Positions 780 through 40,466 of a stretch of DNA of 64,000 nt are shown one piece after another. The position numbers were made by a program, and so were the translations under genes. Positions within the stretch are counted from its first letter, which is position 1, and every line of letters starts with the position of its first letter. The notes under the pieces were generated by a model, which saw only the letters and a program-made list of their open reading frames with translations, searched no databases and was not told where the DNA came from. The DNA is from Minisyncoccota bacterium (GTDB taxonomy: Bacteria; Patescibacteriota; Minisyncoccia; Phycocordibacterales; UBA9973): the NCBI GenBank assembly GCA_041664745.1, contig JBAYKD010000003.1:29412-93411 (forward strand), given 5' to 3'.

Positions 780-3476
780 TTATTTAACCTTCACTTTACT
801 TCCCATTTCAATATTTGAGACTATTTTTTTCTTCTTCATATCTACAATCAATTCTTTATCTCTCATCGTCACCACCACAATGTCCTCCTTCTTCACATTT
901 TTACTTAGAAGGAAATTTGCAACTGGATTTAATATTTTATTCTGAATAAGTCTGCCCAATGGTCTCGCCCCATAGTGAGGATCATAGCCTTCTTTTGCTA
1001 AGTAAGTGAGAGCATCATTTGAAATTTCAAATCCTATTTCTTTCGCCTGTAATCTGTCTTTCACAACTTTTATTTTTAGATCAACAATACTTCGAATAGC
1101 TTCCAATGAAAGAATATCGAAGACTATCACGTCGTCTAATCTATTTAAAAATTCTGGACGGAAATAATCTTTTAAAGATTCAAGAACTTTTTCCTTCGTC
1201 TGAGTATATTCATCTATTTTCGTATTGTTCGTAAACCCTAAGGACTCCATCTTCTCTATTAATTGCGTTCCAATATTTGAAGTAAGAATTATGACTGTAT
1301 TCTTGAAATTCACAACTCGCCCCTTAGCATCAGTTAGATGCCCTTCATCGAGTACTTGAAGAAGTATGTTGAAAACTTCTGGGTGTGCTTTCTCCACTTC
1401 GTCAAAAAGAATTACCGAGTAAGGTCTATGGCGAACAGCCTCTGTAAGATTACCTGATTCATCATAGCCAACGTAGCCAGGAGGCGAACCAATAAGCTTG
1501 GAAACGCTGTGCCTCTCCATGTATTCACTCATGTCCACTCGAATTAGAGCCTTGTCATCATTGAACATAAACTGTGCTAGGGTTTTCGTTAACTCCGTCT
1601 TTCCCACTCCTGTCGGACCTAAGAATATAAATGAACCAATAGGCTTGTTTGGATCAGAAACTCCTGCACGACTCATACGTATAACATTTGAGATCTTCTT
1701 TATCGCCTCATCTTGCCCAATAACTCTGCCCCGTAATATCTCTTCCATCTTTGCCAATTTTTCTCTTTCTTCTTCAAGCATTTTTGAAAGTGGAATACCT
1801 GTCCACATAGAAACGACTTCTCCTATATCTTCGGCTGTAATTTCTTCTTTTAATATTCTGCGAGATTTTTGTAATTTCTTAAGCCTTAGAAGTTTTGTGT
1901 CTAGTTTCTTTTTCAAATCGGGAATTTCTCCATAACGTATTTCAGCAGCACGAGAAAGAAGAGCTCGCATCTCGGCATTCTCACCTTCTACACGTAGATT
2001 ATCTAATTCCTTCTTAATACTTCTTATCTCGGAAACTGTCTCTTTTTCATTTTTCCACTTAAGTTCTATCTCATGAGTCTTCTCTTTCAAATTACTTATT
2101 TCTTTTTCAATTTCTTTAATTCTCCTTTCCGTTTTTTTATTGGCTTCTGATTTATTTCCATCTCGAGCAATTTCTTTAGACAAAGCTTCTTTCTCTATTT
2201 CAAAACGCATAATCTTTCTATGTGCGTCTTCTAATACAGGTGGCTTATTCTCAAGGGCAATACGAAGAGCTGACGAAGCTTCATCAATAAGATCTACAGC
2301 TTTATCAGGTAAATATCTGTTTGTAATATAACGAGTAGAAAGATTCACTGCGGAAATTATAGCATCATCAGTAATACGAACACCGTGATAAAGTTCATAT
2401 TTTTCTTTAAGTCCACGAAGGATTGCAATGGTATCGTCCATACTTGGTTCGTCTATAAATACTGGCTGGAAACGCCTCGCTAGCGCTGGATCCTTCTCAA
2501 TATGCTTTTGATATTCCTTTAATGTTGTGGCCCCAATAGCACGAAGCTCTCCACGAGCAAGTGCAGGCTTTAACATATTTGATGCATCAAGCGATCCTTC
2601 GGAACTTCCCGCTCCTACAATAGTATGAATCTCATCTATAAATAAAATTATCTTACCTTCGGCTCTTTCTATCTCTTTAAGAATTCCGCGAAGCCTCTCT
2701 TCAAATTCTCCTCTATATTTTGTGCCAGCGAGAAGAAGCCCTAAATCAAGCGAGACTACTTCTTTGTCTTTCAAACTCTCAGGTACATCATTCTTGGCAA
2801 TTCTCTGGGCTAGAGCTTCGGCTACAGCCGTCTTGCCAGTGCCAGCTTCACCTATAAGGATAGGATTGTTCTTCGTTCGACGAGAAAGTATTTGCATCAT
2901 TCTCATTATTTCTCTTTCGCGACCAATTACAGGATCAAGCTTATCTTGGCGTGCAAGATCAGTAAGATTCCTCGTAAATTTACTTATAAGTTTTGGCTTC
3001 TTTTTACTATTATCTATTCCGGCTCCTTTTTCTTTTCTTAGTTGAGCCAAAACATCAAGCACTTGAGGTCTATTAATTTTAAATTTACTTAGAAGTTCTT
3101 TTGATTCACTTGTAGTCTCTAAAAGTGAGACGAACAAATGCTCTGTGCCAACGAATTCATCTTTAACTTCCATTGCTACCTTACTTGAATTCTCTATAAC
3201 TTGCGCCAAATCTGGAGTCAAATATATCTGATATGATGGTGATAAAGTATTTTTATTCTCAGGTGATTCTATCATTTCACTTAAATTATCTACCAGTAAA
3301 GTTGTATCTACCTCCATTTTGTCGAGAATAGAAACAATAATAGAATCTTCTTGTATTAGAAGAGCTGTTAAGAGGTGTAAAGTATTTACATGATTGACTC
3401 CACGCTCAATAGCGAGCTCATGAGCTTTCCTGATTACTTCTTTAGCTTTAGTTGTGAAATTATTGAATGGGGGCAT
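780..3476 (-). CDS. clpB: ATP-dependent chaperone/disaggregase ClpB
   Basis: 898 aa with a Clp_N repeat and two AAA+ modules (GEAGTGKTAVAE and GPTGVGKTELTK Walker A motifs). A long coiled-coil middle domain lies between them. Confidence 0.9.
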   Translation of the reverse strand: MPPFNNFTTKAKEVIRKAHELAIERGVNHVNTLHLLTALLIQEDSIIVSILDKMEVDTTLLVDNLSEMIESPENKNTLSPSYQIYLTPDLAQVIENSSKVAMEVKDEFVGTEHLFVSLLETTSESKELLSKFKINRPQVLDVLAQLRKEKGAGIDNSKKKPKLISKFTRNLTDLARQDKLDPVIGREREIMRMMQILSRRTKNNPILIGEAGTGKTAVAEALAQRIAKNDVPESLKDKEVVSLDLGLLLAGTKYRGEFEERLRGILKEIERAEGKIILFIDEIHTIVGAGSSEGSLDASNMLKPALARGELRAIGATTLKEYQKHIEKDPALARRFQPVFIDEPSMDDTIAILRGLKEKYELYHGVRITDDAIISAVNLSTRYITNRYLPDKAVDLIDEASSALRIALENKPPVLEDAHRKIMRFEIEKEALSKEIARDGNKSEANKKTERRIKEIEKEISNLKEKTHEIELKWKNEKETVSEIRSIKKELDNLRVEGENAEMRALLSRAAEIRYGEIPDLKKKLDTKLLRLKKLQKSRRILKEEITAEDIGEVVSMWTGIPLSKMLEEEREKLAKMEEILRGRVIGQDEAIKKISNVIRMSRAGVSDPNKPIGSFIFLGPTGVGKTELTKTLAQFMFNDDKALIRVDMSEYMERHSVSKLIGSPPGYVGYDESGNLTEAVRHRPYSVILFDEVEKAHPEVFNILLQVLDEGHLTDAKGRVVNFKNTVIILTSNIGTQLIEKMESLGFTNNTKIDEYTQTKEKVLESLKDYFRPEFLNRLDDVIVFDILSLEAIRSIVDLKIKVVKDRLQAKEIGFEISNDALTYLAKEGYDPHYGARPLGRLIQNKILNPVANFLLSKNVKKEDIVVVTMRDKELIVDMKKKKIVSNIEMGSKVKVK

Positions 3477-3529: not shown

Positions 3530-4168
3530 TTAATTTCCAGATGTTGTACTATTTGTACTTTTTGTTGTATCTGGTTTTGTTGTAGTAGTTTTCTTCTCTG
3601 AAAGTTTCAATATTGTAAATCCATTACCAAACTTTTTCAAAATAGTTGCATCAAAGTCAATTTTATTAAGAACAACTTTATAAACTAAACTATCGTTCAG
3701 AATAGAAGAGTCAACTAATACGAGACCAACATCTGAAATAATTATTCCTTGTCCAAGTGCCTTCGTTGCATCTGTCGTAGTAGTTGGGGTTGGTGTTGGT
3801 GAAGGAGTTGCTGCTCCTGTACTATCTACTGTCGTTGTACTTGGGGTAACTGGTGTTCCCGCATTAGGATCTACTGCTGGAACCTTCGCATCAACAGGAT
3901 ATATGGAGACAACAGTATCACCATCACCCAGTAGAGGGGCAACTTCTTTTACTTCTTTGGTAGGGGTTGTAGTACTTTTAACTGGTGCTTCAACTGTTGT
4001 GACTCTCTCTATGGTTCTCTGAATGACATTATTGATGGTCTGGGGTACACTCTTCGGCATTTGATTCATAAGAGATACGGTAATAATCCCTGTAGCAATA
4101 GAAACTACAAAAGTAATAAGTAATGTAAGTAAAACAAGCTGTTTTTTGTCTAATTCTTTGATATCCAT
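3530..4168 (-). CDS. Membrane-anchored hypothetical protein with T/P-rich linker and a degenerate half trypsin-like fold
   Basis: It has an N-terminal TM helix and a TTTPT/PSPTPTPTTTT linker. The C-terminal segment GQGIIISDVGLVLVDSSILNDSLVYKVVLNKIDFDATILKKFGNGFTILKL aligns by eye to GSGFIISSDGLIVTNRHVVD...DVAIIKI of the HtrA encoded at 47977..49296, but it lacks the catalytic His and Asp. Confidence 0.5.
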   Translation of the reverse strand: MDIKELDKKQLVLLTLLITFVVSIATGIITVSLMNQMPKSVPQTINNVIQRTIERVTTVEAPVKSTTTPTKEVKEVAPLLGDGDTVVSIYPVDAKVPAVDPNAGTPVTPSTTTVDSTGAATPSPTPTPTTTTDATKALGQGIIISDVGLVLVDSSILNDSLVYKVVLNKIDFDATILKKFGNGFTILKLSEKKTTTTKPDTTKSTNSTTSGN

Positions 4169-34525: not shown

Positions 34526-37500
34526 CTATAAAAGACTAATCTTAAATATTAATTCCCCAATTTTTATTTCTGTGCCCTCTACTTCTTTTATTTGTATTTC
34601 TTTGGCACTGACTGTCTTTATGAGTTCTGTCTTAAATTTATTTATTAATTTCTGCCCATTTACATTTGTACTGATAACAAGAGTAACAACATCATTAGGA
34701 TTTAATCCTTTATTCTTTCTCTCATCTTGAATCGCTCGAATAAGCTCACGATACTGACCTTCAAAACGAAGATCCTCTGTAATATGAGTATCGAGCTCTA
34801 TTTTTTGTTCTTCTCCTTCTATAAATTTAACATTCTTTATGTTTAATTCATCCTTCAATATTTCAATGTACTCATCCTTAATCTTATACTTAGTTGCTAT
34901 TAATTTATTTAATGGCTGACGTACTGGTATTCCAACTTTTTGTCTGGCTTGTAATCCAAGAGTGACAACTTCACGAACTTCTTTCATTTCTTTAATAATT
35001 TCAGTATTTATATTTTTAACTTCAATATTTGCGACAAAATCTGTGAGATGAATACTAATAGAATCTCCATCCAATCTTAATTTCTTCCATACATCTTCGG
35101 CTATAAATGGCATAAACGGAGCAAAAAGTTTTGCTGTCGTTTTCAATACAAAATACAAAGTACTCTTGGCCTCTTTGTCTCCATCCTTTATTCGATCCCT
35201 TGAACGACGTAAATACCACGTTGAAAGATCTTCAATAAATAATTCATATGGTTTGGTGGATAAAGATAAATCATATATCTCCATACCATCTTTCATTTCA
35301 TTAATAAATTGATATAGTCGAGCAATTATCCACTGATCTAAAATGTTTGTCGATGCTTTATATTCCATACCTTCAATATCATGATCACGATAAAGTTCGT
35401 AAAAAGCTACTACGTTGTCAAAACGACTTATAATCTTGCTTGAAACTTCTTGAACTAATTTCTCAGAGAAATTTACATCTTCACCTTTCATTAAAGTACT
35501 AGACATCAGATAAAAACGAAGAGCATCAACTCCATACTTGTTGAACAAAAGCCAAGGGTCTGGAAAATTCATTTTTGATTTCGCCATTTTACTTCCATCT
35601 TCGGCTAAAACTGTACCGGTGGTCACTATATTCTCAAATGGTGCTTTACCAAATAAAATAGTAGAAATAACATGTGTATAGTAAAACCAAGTTCTCGTCT
35701 GAGCAATATACTCAGCTACAAATCCTCCAGGGAAATTGTCTTTCTGCCAATTCGGATTTTCAAATGGGAAGTGATCTTGAGCGAAAGGCATTGACCCTGA
35801 CTCAAACCAACAGTCAATAACTTCTGGAATCCTTTTGTATTCTTCTCCATCCTCACCAACTAAAATAATCGAATCTATATAAGGACGATGAAGATCTACC
35901 TCGTAATTACTATTGTGTGGAAGTGGAACAAAAGGAAGTGAGACTGCTTCTGCATTATCTAAATAATTATAACTCTTCTCGGGACCTACTAGATCAAGAG
36001 TTTTCTCTATACTTAAATTATTTACGCCAGCATACATGAGCCATACGGGACTTCCGTGCGTAATAATCAAAACATTTTTACCGGAATAACTTTTCTCAAT
36101 ATCATACAAGAAGCTCATAGATCTGCGTCGAACTTTTTCATATGATTCATTACCAATTGGTGCTTTGTAAAAATTTTCTACTGTTTTTGGAAAATCATTA
36201 TGATACTCTAACCATTTCTTGCCTTCATACATAGGAACTGACATTTCATGAAGACGATCATCAAAAATAATTTTCTCTTTATCGAAGCCAATAGCCTTCG
36301 CTACTAATTCTGCAGTCTCTTTTGTTCTCACAAAAGGAGAAGTGATTATCACATCAATATTTTCATTTTTTAATCCCTCCCCTGCTTTCTCTGCTTGGCT
36401 GCGTCCAAGTTCTGTAAGATTATCGTCATTATTTACTGTATCACTTATCAAACCTTTTACATTACACTCCGTCTCTCCATGACGCATCATGAAATATTTG
36501 TTACCAGACTTTTTTACTTTTGATTTTAAATCTTCTAGTGAACTTACCATCATCACCTTGCCTTCTTTTGACTTCCAAATAGGAAGAGGACTCGCCCAAT
36601 AACGGTTACGAGATATGGTCCAGTCTGGTGCCGACTCCATAGTATTCTTGAAGCGTCCTTCTTTTAAGTGACCTGGAATCCAATTCATATCTTCACCTTT
36701 TAAAAGTAAATCATTCTTTACTTTTTGAATATTCACAAACCAAGATGGAAGTGCATAATAAAGAAGAGGAGTCTCACATCTGTAACAATGAGGGTATGAG
36801 TGAATTATTTTCTCTTTAGCGAAAAGGATACCTTTTTGAGCAAGATACTTAATGATCAAGACGTCTGTCGATTGATGATCCTCCTTTGGTTTAACTTTCA
36901 CATTTGGGAAATCAACTATCTCTTTTGAGAAATCTCCATTGGGTTCTACATGACGAATAAAAGGAATGTTGTGTTCTTTGGCCAAATTCATATCATCTTC
37001 ACCAAAAGCTGGAGCTTCATGTGCAATACCTGTACCCTTATCTATGGTTACAAAATCTGCATGCCAAATTTTCCAAATATTTTCCTTATTTGGCATATCT
37101 ACATTCTTGTAGTAATCAAATATTGGCTCATATGAAAGGCCAACGAGTTCATTACCTTTAAGTTCTTTTACTTCTACTTGTGTTTCATTGTATCCATTTA
37201 ATAAATATTTTTTATTCTTCAATACACCTGATCCTTCTTCAATACCATCAGGGTGAGAGATAAAATGATTAAAATAATCTTTACTGAATAAATAACTTTC
37301 GCCATTTTTAAATATTACATTTTTACTATCTAATATAGTCATCTGGATGTACTCAATATCATTATTTACCGCAATCGCCGTATTTCCTGGAAGAGTCCAA
37401 GGCGTTGTCGTCCAAGCAAGTAAATATGTATCTTTATATTTTTCATCTAAAATTTTAAACTTCACATAGACAGAAATATCTGTAATATCTTTATAACTAT

Positions 37501-38104
37501 TATCCATAGCTATTTCGGAATTTGCTATCGGAGTCTCACAACGTGGACAATAAGCAAGAACTCTCACTCCTTCATAGAGTAATCCCTTCTTGTTCATCTC
37601 ACCTAGCGCCCACCAGACACTCTCTATGAAAGTGTTATCCATCGTTTTATATGAATTATCAAAATCTACCCAGCGTCCCATACGATCGACTGTCTTCTTC
37701 CATTCATTTACATAAGTAAGAACTTTACTGCGAGCATGATCGGTAAATTTATCTATACCGAGAGCTTCAATAGCTTTCTTGCCTGAAATTCCTAAATCTT
37801 TTTCAACAATATTTTCGATCGGTAATCCATGACAATCCCAGCCCCAACGACGAGGTACGGTATAGCCACTCATGGTCTTGTACCTACCAATAACATCTTT
37901 CACAGTACTACCGAGAATGTGCCCATAGTGAGGAAGCCCTGAAGCAAAAGGAGGTCCATCATAAAAAACATACTTTCCTTTTGGTGCATCTTTCTCTAGA
38001 CTTTTTTTGAAGACGTCATTCTCTTTCCAGAATTGCAAAATAGCTTCTTCTCGGAGTGCTAATTGCGACTTCACTATTTCATTTGCTTTCTTTTTATCTT
38101 CCAT
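34526..38104 (-). CDS. ileS: Isoleucine--tRNA ligase carrying an inserted histidine-phosphatase (PGAM-like) domain
   Basis: HIGH-type motif (PHYGHILG), CP1 editing motif WTTTPWTLPGNTA and KMAKSKMN. The 1192-aa length is explained by a ~200-aa RHG...H domain between IWKSKEGKVMMV and DLHRPYID. Confidence 0.9.
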   Translation of the reverse strand: MEDKKKANEIVKSQLALREEAILQFWKENDVFKKSLEKDAPKGKYVFYDGPPFASGLPHYGHILGSTVKDVIGRYKTMSGYTVPRRWGWDCHGLPIENIVEKDLGISGKKAIEALGIDKFTDHARSKVLTYVNEWKKTVDRMGRWVDFDNSYKTMDNTFIESVWWALGEMNKKGLLYEGVRVLAYCPRCETPIANSEIAMDNSYKDITDISVYVKFKILDEKYKDTYLLAWTTTPWTLPGNTAIAVNNDIEYIQMTILDSKNVIFKNGESYLFSKDYFNHFISHPDGIEEGSGVLKNKKYLLNGYNETQVEVKELKGNELVGLSYEPIFDYYKNVDMPNKENIWKIWHADFVTIDKGTGIAHEAPAFGEDDMNLAKEHNIPFIRHVEPNGDFSKEIVDFPNVKVKPKEDHQSTDVLIIKYLAQKGILFAKEKIIHSYPHCYRCETPLLYYALPSWFVNIQKVKNDLLLKGEDMNWIPGHLKEGRFKNTMESAPDWTISRNRYWASPLPIWKSKEGKVMMVSSLEDLKSKVKKSGNKYFMMRHGETECNVKGLISDTVNNDDNLTELGRSQAEKAGEGLKNENIDVIITSPFVRTKETAELVAKAIGFDKEKIIFDDRLHEMSVPMYEGKKWLEYHNDFPKTVENFYKAPIGNESYEKVRRRSMSFLYDIEKSYSGKNVLIITHGSPVWLMYAGVNNLSIEKTLDLVGPEKSYNYLDNAEAVSLPFVPLPHNSNYEVDLHRPYIDSIILVGEDGEEYKRIPEVIDCWFESGSMPFAQDHFPFENPNWQKDNFPGGFVAEYIAQTRTWFYYTHVISTILFGKAPFENIVTTGTVLAEDGSKMAKSKMNFPDPWLLFNKYGVDALRFYLMSSTLMKGEDVNFSEKLVQEVSSKIISRFDNVVAFYELYRDHDIEGMEYKASTNILDQWIIARLYQFINEMKDGMEIYDLSLSTKPYELFIEDLSTWYLRRSRDRIKDGDKEAKSTLYFVLKTTAKLFAPFMPFIAEDVWKKLRLDGDSISIHLTDFVANIEVKNINTEIIKEMKEVREVVTLGLQARQKVGIPVRQPLNKLIATKYKIKDEYIEILKDELNIKNVKFIEGEEQKIELDTHITEDLRFEGQYRELIRAIQDERKNKGLNPNDVVTLVISTNVNGQKLINKFKTELIKTVSAKEIQIKEVEGTEIKIGELIFKISLL
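35906..36502 (-). other. Histidine phosphatase superfamily (branch 1, PGAM/cofactor-dependent mutase-like) domain inserted in IleRS
   Basis: YFMMRHGETECN (RHG), SPFVRTKETA (second Arg), HEMSVPMYEGK (Glu) and LIITHGSPV (second His), covering aa ~535-733 of the ORF. Confidence 0.75.
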
Positions 38105-38150
38105 ATATTTAAATTTTTATAACTAATAATATTTTTCTATATTTTCTCTA

Positions 38151-38184
38151 GTGGCATATCTACGCCATGGCGTAGATATGCCAC
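38151..38184. repeat. 34-nt perfect palindrome in the ileS 5' UTR
   Basis: GTGGCATATCTACGCCATGGCGTAGATATGCCAC equals its own reverse complement (15-bp stem, 4-nt loop). It lies between the T-box terminator and the ileS ATG. Confidence 0.7.
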
Positions 38185-38190
38185 TTCAAT

Positions 38191-38394
38191 AAAAAAACTC
38201 GTCCACGTACAACAATTACAATAATTGCTATACAAGGACGAGCTTCTCTCGTGGTACCACCTCGTTTACTTCTCATTTAAAGGGTTCTACTTCGTCGTGA
38301 GGTCTTGCCTCACGATGTTTCTTCCCAATGCTCCGAGGCGATAACCTCTTCACTGCATATACTTGAATAATAACACCAAAATAAAAATTTGCAA
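38191..38394 (-). promoter_or_regulatory. T-box riboswitch leader of ileS (promoter, short Stem I region, T-box/antiterminator, terminator)
   Basis: On the minus strand, TTGCAA-16 nt-TATTAT is followed by ...AACGAGGUGGUACCACGAGAGAAGCUCGUCC. The core GGUGGUACC matches the conserved T-box sequence. CUCGUCC can pair either with upstream ACGAG or with downstream GGACGAG, which is followed by U7 (a long terminator stem). AUC (Ile) triplets lie at 38340-38342 and 38314-38316. Confidence 0.75.
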
Positions 38395-38514
38395 GAAAAT
38401 TAATCTGGGTGTAGTATCTAATCGAATTGCACTTTTTAGGACATTACATTTAGATGGGTGTCTATAAGATTATTTTTCAAAAATTGGTTTAATGCGCGCT
38501 TATATAAACTAGTC

Positions 38515-38795
38515 AGAAAAAAGTAATCTTTTAAAGGAATCACACGTTGGAACAACACAGCCAAAATGCTGAAAAGCAGAAGAACGTTGGTGTGCCGAGG
38601 TGGTTAGGTGTCAAACTGAAGGATCAGGAAATACGTGCCAGCAGACGCGGTTATACGTATACCTAATTCAGGTTCAGCAATTCTAGCTTTGAAAGGGAAA
38701 CATATAGCGAAAGCTAGACCAAGTGGCCAAGAAGTATCCCACTCAAAGTGAAAAGACCCTGTCTGTTCTAACGAGCAGCAGGGTTCTTTTATTTT
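38515..38795 (+). ncRNA. Unclassified structured RNA containing a 16S rRNA helix-18/530-loop look-alike; 5' end uncertain
   Basis: No ORF is present. Stems include CTAGCTTT(38683-90)/AAAGCTAG(38710-17), ATACGT/ACGTAT around GTGCCAGCAGACGCGGTTATAC (38635-38656), and AGTGG/CCACT. The region ends in a strong intrinsic terminator, ACCCTGTCTG...CAGCAGGGT followed by TCTTTTATTTTTT. Confidence 0.55.
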
Positions 38796-40466
38796 TTATA
38801 TGACTTCATTCTGATAACACTTTTCACAATAAATTATTTCAGGACGTTCTGGTGCATAAGATGTCTCAAATTCATTTGTACACCCTTCTTTCATACAAGA
38901 ACGATGCCAGAGTTTATTTGGTCCACGAGATTTTATTCTTCTATAGTGTCTACAATCAGGACAAAGTCGAGGAAGTGGAACATCTAGTTTTTTGTAAAAT
39001 AAAAATTCATTAGGAATTACTTTATAATTCTTGCTACAAGATTCACAGACATAAATTTCTTGTGTTGCATCAAAATCAATCTCAGAGAAACTTTCTGGTA
39101 TTTCTTCTATCTTCTTCGTTTCTTTATCATATGTCCCTCTTTCTGTATCTTCCCACTTAAAACCTTGAGATAAAGCTTTTTCTTTAGATAATATAAACTG
39201 CTCATAAGCTGGAGTCTCGTTGTAACCAAAGCAAGATAAGTCTTTATTAAAGAATTCTCCATACCGTCCACTTTCTCTTAATTCATTTTTTATTTTATTT
39301 AAAATCTCTTCATACTCTTTCTTTTCATATTGTTTATTTAAAATACAATAATTCTTTTTCCTTAAACCTACACAACCAAAACAATTATTGGAATTGAAAC
39401 AATACATAGAATATTCTACAAATGAACAAGTCCAACAAAGAGCATCACAAATTAGATTTGAATTATCAATACCTGTATTTATAGAATTATAAATAAGGGA
39501 AGCATTTCTACCCGCAGTATCACAGTCCATAGTATCTTTAGCATTACGCCATATATGTACCCCATATTTATTATCTTCAGCCTCATAACAGTGGAAACAT
39601 GATCTACAATTTTTTACATTTTTCATATAAGAACCTGTAGAATTTACAGCTTTCATTATTTCTGCAAATTTACGAGGTTGCTTCTTCAAAAAATCTTCAT
39701 ATTTTTCTCTAAAGTTTTTAATTCCTGAAGAAGTATTAATCGCTAATTCTTTTTTAATTTTTTCATATTCTTCTTTTGAATATTTTTCATTAAAAATATA
39801 ATTACTTTTATCCCGCAAATTTATACATCCAATACAATCCGTGCAACCTTTGCAATCGGTTAAAAAGTAACTTGTCGTACAATCATGACATCCTTTACTA
39901 TATAAAAGCTTATAGGAATTGTAACAATCATCAGATTCATAAGTCAGCTCACATTTTGAAGCAAAAGAAGTATCTACTACATCCCTACATTCTTGAATCC
40001 AATAAGAGTGAATAGAATCTTCGTTGTTTGATGATTCTATAATAAAATAACAATTCTTATTATCAGCAGAGATATTGGTATAATCACTCCCAGGACTTCG
40101 CATATAGATAAGTGAAACCTTAGGGACAGATTGCCACAACTTTTTAAATTGTTCAAAAAATGAAATCTCCGGATTATAATCTAAGCCATAATCTTCCCCT
40201 CCCCAATCATCAGCAAACCAACAATCATAACACCAAATCTTAAATGGCTTGTTTTCTGAATACATTGATATTACATCTTTATCACATTTATCACATTTCC
40301 TTTTATAAAAAGTTCTTTCATTACGAAAACTTAAGCGAAGTTGAGCCCTACAATCTGGACATATGGAAGGAGCATTTATTCCTATCTTTTCATAAAAACC
40401 AAAATCATCAGATTCTATAATAAAGTCTTTTTTACAATTCTGACATATTTTGGTTTGAGAATTCAT
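38796..40466 (-). CDS. Cys-rich hypothetical protein with terminal zinc-ribbon modules and an internal duplicated Cys-cluster domain
   Basis: The N-terminal CQNCKKDFIIESDDFGFYEKIGINAPSICPDCRAQLR is mirrored by the C-terminal CESCSKNYKVIPNEFLFYKKLDVPLPRLCPDCRHYRR. The internal repeat CHDC...CKGCTDCIGCINLRDKSNYIFNEKYSKEEYEKI pairs with CWTC...CFNSNNCFGCVGLRKKNYCILNKQYEKKEYEEI. Confidence 0.6.
   Translation of the reverse strand: MNSQTKICQNCKKDFIIESDDFGFYEKIGINAPSICPDCRAQLRLSFRNERTFYKRKCDKCDKDVISMYSENKPFKIWCYDCWFADDWGGEDYGLDYNPEISFFEQFKKLWQSVPKVSLIYMRSPGSDYTNISADNKNCYFIIESSNNEDSIHSYWIQECRDVVDTSFASKCELTYESDDCYNSYKLLYSKGCHDCTTSYFLTDCKGCTDCIGCINLRDKSNYIFNEKYSKEEYEKIKKELAINTSSGIKNFREKYEDFLKKQPRKFAEIMKAVNSTGSYMKNVKNCRSCFHCYEAEDNKYGVHIWRNAKDTMDCDTAGRNASLIYNSINTGIDNSNLICDALCWTCSFVEYSMYCFNSNNCFGCVGLRKKNYCILNKQYEKKEYEEILNKIKNELRESGRYGEFFNKDLSCFGYNETPAYEQFILSKEKALSQGFKWEDTERGTYDKETKKIEEIPESFSEIDFDATQEIYVCESCSKNYKVIPNEFLFYKKLDVPLPRLCPDCRHYRRIKSRGPNKLWHRSCMKEGCTNEFETSYAPERPEIIYCEKCYQNEVI

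Follow-up and report, generated by a model that had tools for sequence, protein, structure and literature searches.

The described RNAs that stand conceptually nearest to the element discussed here, by analogy, are the leaders of ribosomal protein (r-protein) operons, which mimic rRNA, and the decoy RNAs 6S and CsrB. The r-protein leaders (S15, L20, S4, L1; the r-leader families of Rfam) are extraribosomal RNAs that reproduce the binding site of a protein on rRNA and presumably compete for that ligand, and rRNA mimicry by r-protein regulators is well established (PMC7247131). The 6S RNA imitates an open promoter, and CsrB/RsmZ are sponges that imitate mRNA sites. The element in question lies in a 64,000-nucleotide (nt) stretch of a Minisyncoccota bacterium (assembly GCA_041664745.1, contig JBAYKD010000003.1, positions 29,412 to 93,411 of the forward strand; hereafter the window). 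At 38424-38795 of its + strand we propose, tentatively and with a confidence just short of even, a gene for a stand-alone, non-coding, structured small RNA (sRNA) of a previously undescribed and patchily distributed family, which would act in trans as a mimic or decoy of helix 18 (h18), the 530-loop helix of 16S rRNA.

The r-protein leaders are cis-acting, lie in the 5' untranslated region and mimic a few contact nucleotides, whereas the window RNA appears to be stand-alone and convergent with its neighbor, reproduces a whole helix nearly base for base and has no r-protein gene adjacent to it. With 6S and CsrB/RsmZ it would share the trans-acting mode, in which a structured RNA of the abundant type is proposed to sequester a protein by imitating its nucleic-acid target, and the architecture of a closing 5'/3' helix; however, it has no sequence or structure relation to them (no Rfam match), the target imitated would be rRNA, and its distribution is patchy rather than that of a housekeeping RNA. 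Literature searches for an h18/530-loop mimic RNA or an h18-cleaving toxin returned no relevant description. What is new is most likely an RNA family built around an autonomous h18/530 pseudoknot; the kind to which it would belong, the molecular-mimic RNAs, is known, and a mimicry function is plausible.

The Helix 18 Copy and Its Anatomy

The original prediction had pointed to 38635-38656 (+), where GTGCCAGCAGACGCGGTTATAC is identical to the 16S consensus of positions 515-536 (E. coli numbering), GTGCCAGCAGCCGCGGTAATAC, at 20 of 22 positions, and had judged a chance match very unlikely. This was borne out: a search of the whole window for the consensus with up to three mismatches returned this site alone, and none of 100 dinucleotide-preserving shuffles of the window gave any match at the same tolerance. 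The orphan h18 copy is real, and it is more complete than was first seen. Its surroundings are largely as had been described. The window holds no rRNA operon (Rfam at gathering thresholds gave three tRNAs only), and blastn of the region against 16S-bearing loci aligned just the core of about 30 nt, the flanks being unlike 16S. No long open reading frame (ORF) covers 38400-38795 and none is conserved, as the window and its closest homologue, the metagenome locus L146, differ by 1-2-nt indels. An 8-bp hairpin, CTAGCTTT/AAAGCTAG, is present at 38683-38717, and the terminator has the better T-tract on the + strand (TTTTATTTTTT after the hairpin, only TTTTCACTTT on the - strand). Thus the structural claim, an orphan terminator-ended RNA that mimics the h18/530 loop and is no rRNA remnant, holds in view of the absence of an Rfam family, the non-16S flanks and the conservation of the hairpin, with compensatory changes, in related and unrelated genomes. 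The arms of the inner stem (ATACG/CGTAT) had been recognized as well. The boundaries and the outer stem needed revision, and the pseudoknot strand had been overlooked: the pairing of AGG at 38626-38628 with CCT was dropped, since it is not conserved in L146, and the true outer stem, kept in L146, is AGGT at 38606-38609 with ACCT at 38661-38664.

The module shares with h18 of 16S rRNA (E. coli 500-545) the outer stem, a 3-nt pseudoknot strand followed by NAA, a 5-bp inner stem with the equivalents of the conserved pairs C514-G537 and G515-C536, the 521-522/527-528 mini-helix and 20 of the 22 loop-region bases. It differs in lying outside any 16S gene, without homology to h17, h19 or h3 and with a predicted promoter and terminator of its own; in having U506:A525 for G506:C525, U532 in most members and U526 in L146; and in an extra small hairpin within the 508-510 linker of the window and L146, which in the window stands between the linker and the inner stem.

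Across the six lineages that carry the RNA (see below), each part of the helix can be followed. The outer stem, which we take to be equivalent to E. coli 500-504/541-545, has 4-5 bp per member with differing sequences; 80% of its cells pair in a fixed alignment, the misses being one-base register shifts in two members (L087 and L117). Directly after it comes the strand GUC, complementary to GAC at the positions of 524-526 in all five members with the exact core (pseudoknot 505-507/524-526), and because GUC is complementary to the GAC that replaces GCC, C525A is one half of a compensated pseudoknot pair, U506:A525. In L146, GUC faces GAU, for which G.U pairing is still allowed. The following linker is NAA as in 16S (UAA, CAA or AAA), and the inner stem (511-515/536-540) has 5 bp in every member, with 100% of cells paired. 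Within the universal loop, 516-535, members depart from the consensus only at 525, 526 and 532. With an inner stem, a predicted pseudoknot, an outer stem and the loop sequence, the module is, as modeled, an h18 by structure. The comparison of members shows that this apparently complete and autonomous copy of 16S h18 (outer stem, pseudoknot strand, NAA linker, inner stem and 530 loop) is the only module common to the whole family.

Homologues and Compensatory Change

Besides the window, five lineages carry the RNA. L002, a metagenome-assembled genome (MAG) labeled Saccharibacteria and found by a genome scan, has it between argS and the T-box leader of ileS, divergent from ileS as in the window; the RNA, of about 130 nt, ends in a strong terminator on the sense strand that lies 15 nt beyond the module, and the IleS is only about 53% identical to the window type. 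Three members came from an exact 22-mer scan of metagenomes. L028 repeats the arrangement of the window (ileS, RNA, a Cys-rich gene of 568 aa), and its signals are a promoter-like TTGACA-16-TAATAT and, some 300 nt past the module, a terminator with a 13-bp stem. L087 (one sequence with L064 and L108) has the RNA between a 215-aa gene without assigned identity and hsp20-prsW-valS, and in L117 it is flanked by an ArdC-like gene, of a sort typical for conjugative plasmids, and by the gene of a 1108-aa protein that has a phosphoribosyltransferase domain. L146, from a JGI metagenome, was reached through the neighboring Cys-rich protein (88% identical) and then matched by the covariance model R1 at 40.9 bits, in the same slot as in the window. 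Its loop, GTGCCAGCAGATGCGGTAATAC, has A525, U526 and the canonical A532; its inner stem is UUACG/CGUAA, AGGU/ACCU and GUC are as in the window, and its inserted hairpin is AUCUG-GAAA-CGGAU. Members range from about 100 to about 450 nt and their flanks differ; L002 and L117 are short: after a leader comes the module, whose outer stem is extended, and then a terminator.

Covariation was assessed in an alignment of five members (A3), with the structure written from h18. Standard pairs fill 93% of the cells, and all three variable pairs of the inner stem are changed on both sides. The covariation score is 0.373 against 0.128±0.045 in column shuffles, of which 0 of 500 reach it; in a control in which the 3' partners were slid by 1-3 columns, pairing falls to 23-52%. 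These aligned sequences show the h18 module to be kept foldable by compensatory changes.

The RNA of L146 is homologous to that of the window over its length, with 60% identity for the whole RNA compared with 85.7% for the adjacent Cys-rich gene. The RNA would thus seem to evolve fast overall, yet the h18 loop and a few blocks are kept, suggesting selection on these blocks. The + strand of 38400-38800 folds with z=-4.0 relative to shuffles (z=-1.7 for the - strand), and 38500-38800 is a local peak of G+C and of purine excess on the + strand, within a neighborhood of 30% G+C that codes on the - strand.

Relation to rRNA and to Known RNA Families

The Rfam comparison that the original prediction called for, run in E-value mode on 38050-38900, found only the T-box of ileS (- strand), with no match to a small-subunit (SSU) rRNA model at E<=10 and nothing on 38400-38800. 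Rfam scans of L002, L028, L087 and L117 gave no family match either, the L028 intergenic region having chance-level matches only, and ARAGORN found no tmRNA. Identity with RNase P RNA, tmRNA, signal recognition particle RNA or 6S was rejected, as it has no Rfam or ARAGORN support, the CR-I and CR-V motifs are lacking and the RNA is dispensable between relatives. Contiguous homology to the neighboring rRNA helices (h16-h17 upstream, h3/h19 downstream) was not found by the Rfam SSU models or blastn. By these comparisons the RNA is neither an rRNA fragment nor a member of any Rfam 15 family.

The variant 22-mer is not unique to the family. In the genome and metagenome scans it is the normal h18 of many mitochondrial SSU rRNAs, always with GUC upstream; therefore U506:A525 and U532 are tolerated by working ribosomes. 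Most exact matches in both collections were rejected as mitochondrial SSU rRNAs or as 16S genes with C525A, and two further candidates (L027/L097 and L125) were dropped on finding GGATTAGATACCC downstream. The likeness to the fungal and protist type of mitochondrial h18 includes the identical GTGCCAGCAGACGCGGTTATAC and the upstream GUC, and identity extends to 29 nt in L004, L007 and L009. However, the mitochondrial helices are part of SSU genes that are complete though reduced and have GGCGTAAAG and GGATTAGATACCC further downstream, whereas the flanks and the synteny of the window copy are bacterial (Patescibacteria). No Patescibacteria 16S gene with the variant 22-mer was present in the genome or metagenome collection scans. 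The mitochondrial likeness is most plausibly a tolerated covariation that arose more than once in AT-rich genomes, with transfer as the less likely source.

One explanation is that a scrap of rRNA gene, native or foreign (e.g., of mitochondrial type), landed in an intergenic hot spot and is decaying there without a function. The occurrence of the exact 22-mer with upstream GUC in mitochondrial h18 agrees with this, as do the patchy presence of the RNA and the varied small elements found upstream of ileS in relatives. Such a scrap would nevertheless have to persist in six lineages among unrelated flanks with the module intact, to acquire compensatory changes in both stems and the pseudoknot, to have sense-strand promoter-like boxes and terminators while lacking h17, h19 or other 16S homology, and to keep its loop while the rest of the RNA diverges to 27-60% identity. 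We regard a scrap as very unlikely.

Reduced mitochondrial-type SSU genes were also seen in bacterial MAGs (Saprospiraceae, Lentisphaeria, Chitinophagaceae, Actinomycetota, Bacteroidetes; L004, L007, L009, L011, L012, L013) and in three 'viral' contigs of IMG/VR (L141-L143); organelle DNA in such MAGs and viral contigs likely reflects mis-binning.

Extent and Architecture of the Predicted RNA

The unit had been placed at 38515-38795; its 3' part stands, and its start most likely lies near 38424 (Table 1). A -10-like hexamer is found 6-7 nt before a conserved GAATTG in the window, L146 and L145, a relative that lacks the RNA, as part of the conserved stretch AATCGAATTG. Promoter-like boxes and terminators occur on the sense strand in all members, with -10/-35 boxes plus terminators in L002, L087, L117 and L146 and sense-strand terminators 3' of the module also in L002, L028, L087 and L146. 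The window terminator overlaps the stop codon of the convergent gene and, owing to its bulge and long loop, was not flagged by a consensus scan. Probably the RNA has a sigma-70-type promoter of its own, and an intrinsic terminator ends its transcription.

Table 1. Features of the predicted RNA and its neighbors, in window positions
Feature	Position	Strand	Basis or remark
Whole predicted RNA, ~370 nt	38424-38795	+	Fold z, composition peak, L146 homologue; ends inferred from promoter and terminator
Candidate -35, TTGCAA, palindromic	38389-38394	+	17 nt upstream of TAGTAT; place conserved in L145 (TTGCAA-17-TAATAT)
Candidate -10, TAGTAT	38412-38417	+	Sequence, inferred; TAATAT at the equivalent place in L146 and L145
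P1 5' strand, GAAUUGC	38424-38430	+	Pairs with 38677-38683, probability ~1.0
Long AT-rich hairpin, variable region	38466-38532	+	Minimum free energy and centroid structures
Conserved block AAAGGAAUCACACGUUGGAA.AACACAGCC ... UUGGUGUGCC.AG.UGG, predicted hairpin with variable tip	38533-38605	+	78% identity to L146 vs 60% for the whole RNA
h18 module	38606-38664	+	Sequence, family alignment and pair counts, covariance-model matches
Outer stem AGGU/ACCU	38606-09 / 38661-64	+	Counterpart of h18 outer stem
Pseudoknot strand GUC	38610-12	+	Complementary to altered GAC at the positions of 524-526
Linker AAA	After GUC; 38606-38615 = AGGU-GUC-AAA	+	Sequence
Inserted hairpin CUGA-AGGA-UCAG, 12 nt	38616-27	+	Covaries with L146 AUCUG-GAAA-CGGAU
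Inner stem AUACG/CGUAU	38631-35 / 38656-60	+	Sequence
530-type loop with GAC at the 524-526 positions	38635-38656	+	Sequence
P1 3' strand, GCAAUUC, inside conserved motif UUCAGCAAUUC	38677-38683	+	Fold prediction; motif conservation
3' hairpin CUAGCUUU...AAAGCUAG	38683-38717	+	Sequence, fold; lineage-specific, absent in L146
Candidate intrinsic terminator, imperfect G+C-rich hairpin then UUUUAUUUUUU	38754-38797	+	Sequence, fold
Reduced T-box leader of ileS, divergent	38231-38362	-	RF00230, 38.6 bits, E=6.6e-7, below gathering score 93
Cys-rich zinc-ribbon protein gene, 556 aa, convergent	38796-40466	-	Context; not linked to the RNA

The predicted order of parts is a 5' P1 strand, variable hairpins, the conserved block, the h18 module, the 3' hairpin and the terminator. 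The first seven bases from G38424 pair 12 nt past the h18 module to form P1. Counterparts of the P1 motif are TTCAGCAATTC in L146, TTCAGCAATGCTC in L087 and CTCAGCAGTTC in L028, and an equivalent helix is predicted in each: 7 bp in L146, 8 bp with one bulge in L087, and 10-11 bp with G.U pairs in L028 (U.G where the motif is GCAGUUC). P1 is accordingly predicted at a probability of about 1 in four lineages; L002 and L117 lack both P1 and the 5' domain. The conserved block lies directly 5' of the module, and the AT-rich hairpin before it is 27% identical to L146, which has a different, short hairpin in its place. In the long members the RNA would fold so that h18, as the last branch, is displayed beside the closing helix P1. 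This placement resembles that of h18 beside h3 in the 5' domain of 16S rRNA; homology of P1 to h3 was not claimed, as the topology is similar and the sequence likeness too weak. A second rRNA-like stretch, ACTCAAAGTGAAAAGAC, compared with 16S 908-925, was rejected as the A-tract of a bidirectional terminator, absent in L146.

On the - strand, the promoter scan gave TTGCAA-16-TATTAT for ileS at 38394-38367. The single palindromic TTGCAA (38389-38394) can serve as -35 for both divergent promoters, that of ileS (-) and that of the sRNA (+).

Distribution and Locus Context

In several relatives the RNA is absent from the syntenic slot and its flanks (3.5-5 kb on each side): L014-L018, whose IleS is 74-87% identical, L135, L136, L145 and L147/L148. 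L145 is an 800-kb Nomurabacteria-type scaffold whose slot has only an unrelated element of about 110 nt, and the gene order of L147/L148, argS-83aa-556aa-ileS, is exactly that of the window without the RNA. The covariance model R1 found no second copy in the window or in the sequence around the RNA-less loci. Because close relatives with the same gene order lack it, the RNA is accessory and no essential piece of a split rRNA. From these comparisons it is gained or lost on short time scales.

The same loci bear on the proposal that the 16S rRNA is split and lacks h18, and that this RNA is incorporated into the ribosome as the missing piece. The rRNA genes of Patescibacteria are unusual, with insertions and reductions, the module is structurally complete, and the U506:A525 variant works in mitochondrial ribosomes. 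This proposal is nevertheless extremely improbable: relatives whose neighboring protein is 85-88% identical, in the same gene order, do without the RNA at the locus, its flanks vary and its length runs from about 100 to about 450 nt, and the collection scans held no Patescibacteria 16S with the variant.

The next gene is convergent at all six loci, and the RNA is therefore not a 5' leader. Another suggestion is that the element works at the DNA level or in cis: it could bind a protein, regulate the divergent ileS promoter, or serve the convergent gene as an antisense or termination element. Three lineages carry it divergent from ileS, and it shares the -35 hexamer with ileS and the terminator with the convergent gene. 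The L087 and L117 copies, however, are not beside ileS, covariation of the stems with a fixed loop indicates a folded single strand, and the ileS genes of relatives do without the RNA, with or without a T-box. A cis element is, in our judgment, highly improbable.

The neighbors across the loci are ileS, argS and the genes for the Cys-rich protein, Hsp20 and the ArdC-like protein. A functional link to the Cys-rich 556-aa gene was ruled out, as each occurs without the other: the gene without the RNA in L018, L136, L145 and L147/L148, and the RNA without the gene in L002, L087 and L117.

What lies between the ileS promoter and the gene upstream varies among close relatives, which carry differing small non-coding elements that end in a terminator (L145 5180-5340, L147 5171-5422, L028 2860-3315); in L028 a second terminated stretch precedes the h18 RNA. 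The pattern suggests that this slot is a hot spot of turnover for small RNAs.

Viral and Plasmid Sequences

A scan of viral contigs with the canonical 22-mer gave four matches. Those in L138 and L140 were set aside as 16S contamination; the further viral matches L141-L143, outside these four, are mitochondrial. In L137 the 22-mer (3814-3835, +) lies inside a phage ORF downstream of the major head gene, where it encodes VPAAAVIP within a Pro/Ala linker (PPPPPVPAAAVIPEE); as an h18 element it was rejected, being probably a compositional coincidence. L139, a G+C-rich contig, carries a genuine replication module of a phage, which encodes a DNA polymerase, an exonuclease, a Sak4-like protein, a helicase and an endonuclease. 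At 2506-2552 (-), between the phrog_3724 and VRR-NUC-type endonuclease genes, its intergenic region reads, on the coding strand, GUCACC-GGC-canonical 22-mer-GCU-GGUGAC, followed by a terminator with a GCAA tetraloop. This mini-h18 has a 9-bp stem, with CACCGGC as in 16S, and scores 32.5 bits with R1; if functional, it would be a second, convergent case. The stretch CAGCAATGCTC in L139 was rejected as a shared P1 motif, as it is the GNRA-loop top of the phage's terminator.

Searches for further copies were negative: the variant 22-mer had no match in viral contigs, blastn of the RNA found none in phage genomes, and a metagenome scan with window-type 3' flanks (GTGCC...ACGTNTNCC) returned none. 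Plasmid blastn with the L117 RNA gave three matches, which were read as true 16S genes; one plasmid is named pTSrrn, and the PLSDB table lists no RNA genes.

In L117 (14-4699) the phosphoribosyltransferase domain is N-terminal in the 1108-aa protein, and the ArdC-like gene next to the RNA, of the antirestriction/zincin kind, finds its best matches on conjugative plasmids from Bacillus, Paenibacillus and Hymenobacter. Given these matches, the RNA family seems to reach beyond Patescibacteria, on a mobile element.

Proposed Function

The 530 loop is among the most conserved and central pieces of RNA, involved in decoding, in the contact with S12 and in the streptomycin pocket, and it carries m7G527 and Psi516. 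Candidate ligands of h18 are S12, S4, RsmG (m7G527), RsuA (Psi516), IF1, A-site toxins and the drugs of the streptomycin pocket. In the proposed mechanism the RNA would present the 530 pseudoknot in trans and so bind and titrate a factor that normally recognizes h18 on the 30S subunit or its precursors. As an accessory decoy it may guard ribosomes from a toxin or enzyme directed at h18, or it may draw away an enzyme that modifies h18, e.g., RsmG or RsuA; the h18 substrate of RsuA has been discussed (PMC10525438). More speculatively, the U506:A525 swap would stop the pseudoknot of the mimic from cross-pairing with nascent 16S rRNA (GGC/GCC).

A related possibility is that the RNA is a trans-encoded autoregulatory sponge for the core r-proteins S12 and/or S4, buffering free protein during assembly. 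S4 and S12 bind the h3/h18 corner of the 16S 5' domain, which h18 with its closing helix resembles, and the r-protein leaders are a well-established precedent for such mimicry. On the other hand, no r-protein gene adjoins the RNA, its absence from close relatives with identical gene order would be odd for a housekeeping circuit, and the short members L002 and L117 do without P1 and the 5' domain; a sponge of this kind is hence considered rather improbable. That close relatives can do without the RNA, and that one copy has the surroundings of a conjugative element, favors an accessory role over S12/S4 housekeeping feedback.

The element could also be an sRNA that acts by base pairing or otherwise, its loop serving as a seed, a kissing loop or a ligand-binding fold, with the likeness to h18 due to ancestry or convergence. 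The anatomy is typical of an sRNA (its own predicted promoter, a terminator and one conserved exposed loop), and the neighborhoods make no protein partner evident. Yet the pseudoknot strand, the NAA linker and both stems are kept along with the loop, i.e., the whole h18 scaffold; much of an h18 loop is buried in the pseudoknot, which suits seed pairing poorly; and the window contains no complementary target, the sole match on either strand being the element itself. We consider such an sRNA a fairly poor prospect.

The decoy reading, which is retained, has several points to its disadvantage. Isolated h18 is not known to bind S12, S4 or RsmG with high affinity. No neighbor gene is conserved across the family and no partner gene was found at the six loci, and where ileS is adjacent, in three lineages, the synteny may simply have been inherited. 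Five of the six lineages, a small sample, were found through the exact 22-mer, which makes the invariance of the loop partly a matter of ascertainment; because the loop was fixed by the search pattern, its invariance is no evidence by itself, and the unbiased view comes from L146 alone, found independently of the 22-mer. The promoter and 5' end in the window are predictions, the promoter having 8 of 12 consensus matches, below the reporting threshold of the promoter scan, and P1 reflects sequence conservation and thermodynamics, with little true covariation. Finally, the hairpin of phage L139 may be an unrelated, independent capture of h18 from host rDNA.

A further-reaching claim, which we consider unlikely at present, is that this is the first stand-alone RNA to reproduce an entire functional rRNA helix as a decoy: an RNA-based, horizontally mobile device for protection or manipulation, carried by ultra-small Patescibacteria and by one conjugative element or more, with a possible echo in a phage. 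If this were true, the decoy would intercept an h18-targeting enzyme, toxin or drug, or draw away the enzymes that modify G527/U516, which would alter the sensitivity to aminoglycosides.

A transcribed and selected free-standing copy of h18 would imply that some factor, cellular or foreign, recognizes h18 outside the ribosome and is exploited by cells and perhaps by mobile elements. Knowing this partner would open a direct way to the assembly or modification factors that bind h18, or bring to light a new class of toxin directed at the ribosome, along with the RNA that serves as its antidote. The family may also offer a minimal natural construct of the 530 pseudoknot as a model RNA. On the practical side, 515F-type universal probes and 16S-calling pipelines can match non-rRNA loci.

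Neighboring Genes

A RhuM/Fic-DOC family protein is encoded two genes from the RNA in L028 (5515-6507, -), and no such gene is near the other copies. The Cys-rich 556-aa protein has CxxC pairs at its N- and C-termini and internal Cys repeats, belongs to no Pfam family and often has tandem paralogues. Its homologues number more than 6000, the best 120 listed being 56-88% identical, and are very widespread in Patescibacteria.

The T-box of the window ileS is strongly reduced, with 6 nt standing for 76 model positions of the Stem I/II region. By eye, no T-box was seen upstream of ileS in L146, L147 or L028. The window IleS itself (34526-38104, -; identified by Pfam) has a histidine-phosphatase domain, His_Phos_1, inserted at aa 538-713, an architecture found in all 120 of the best homologues listed, which are from Patescibacteria.

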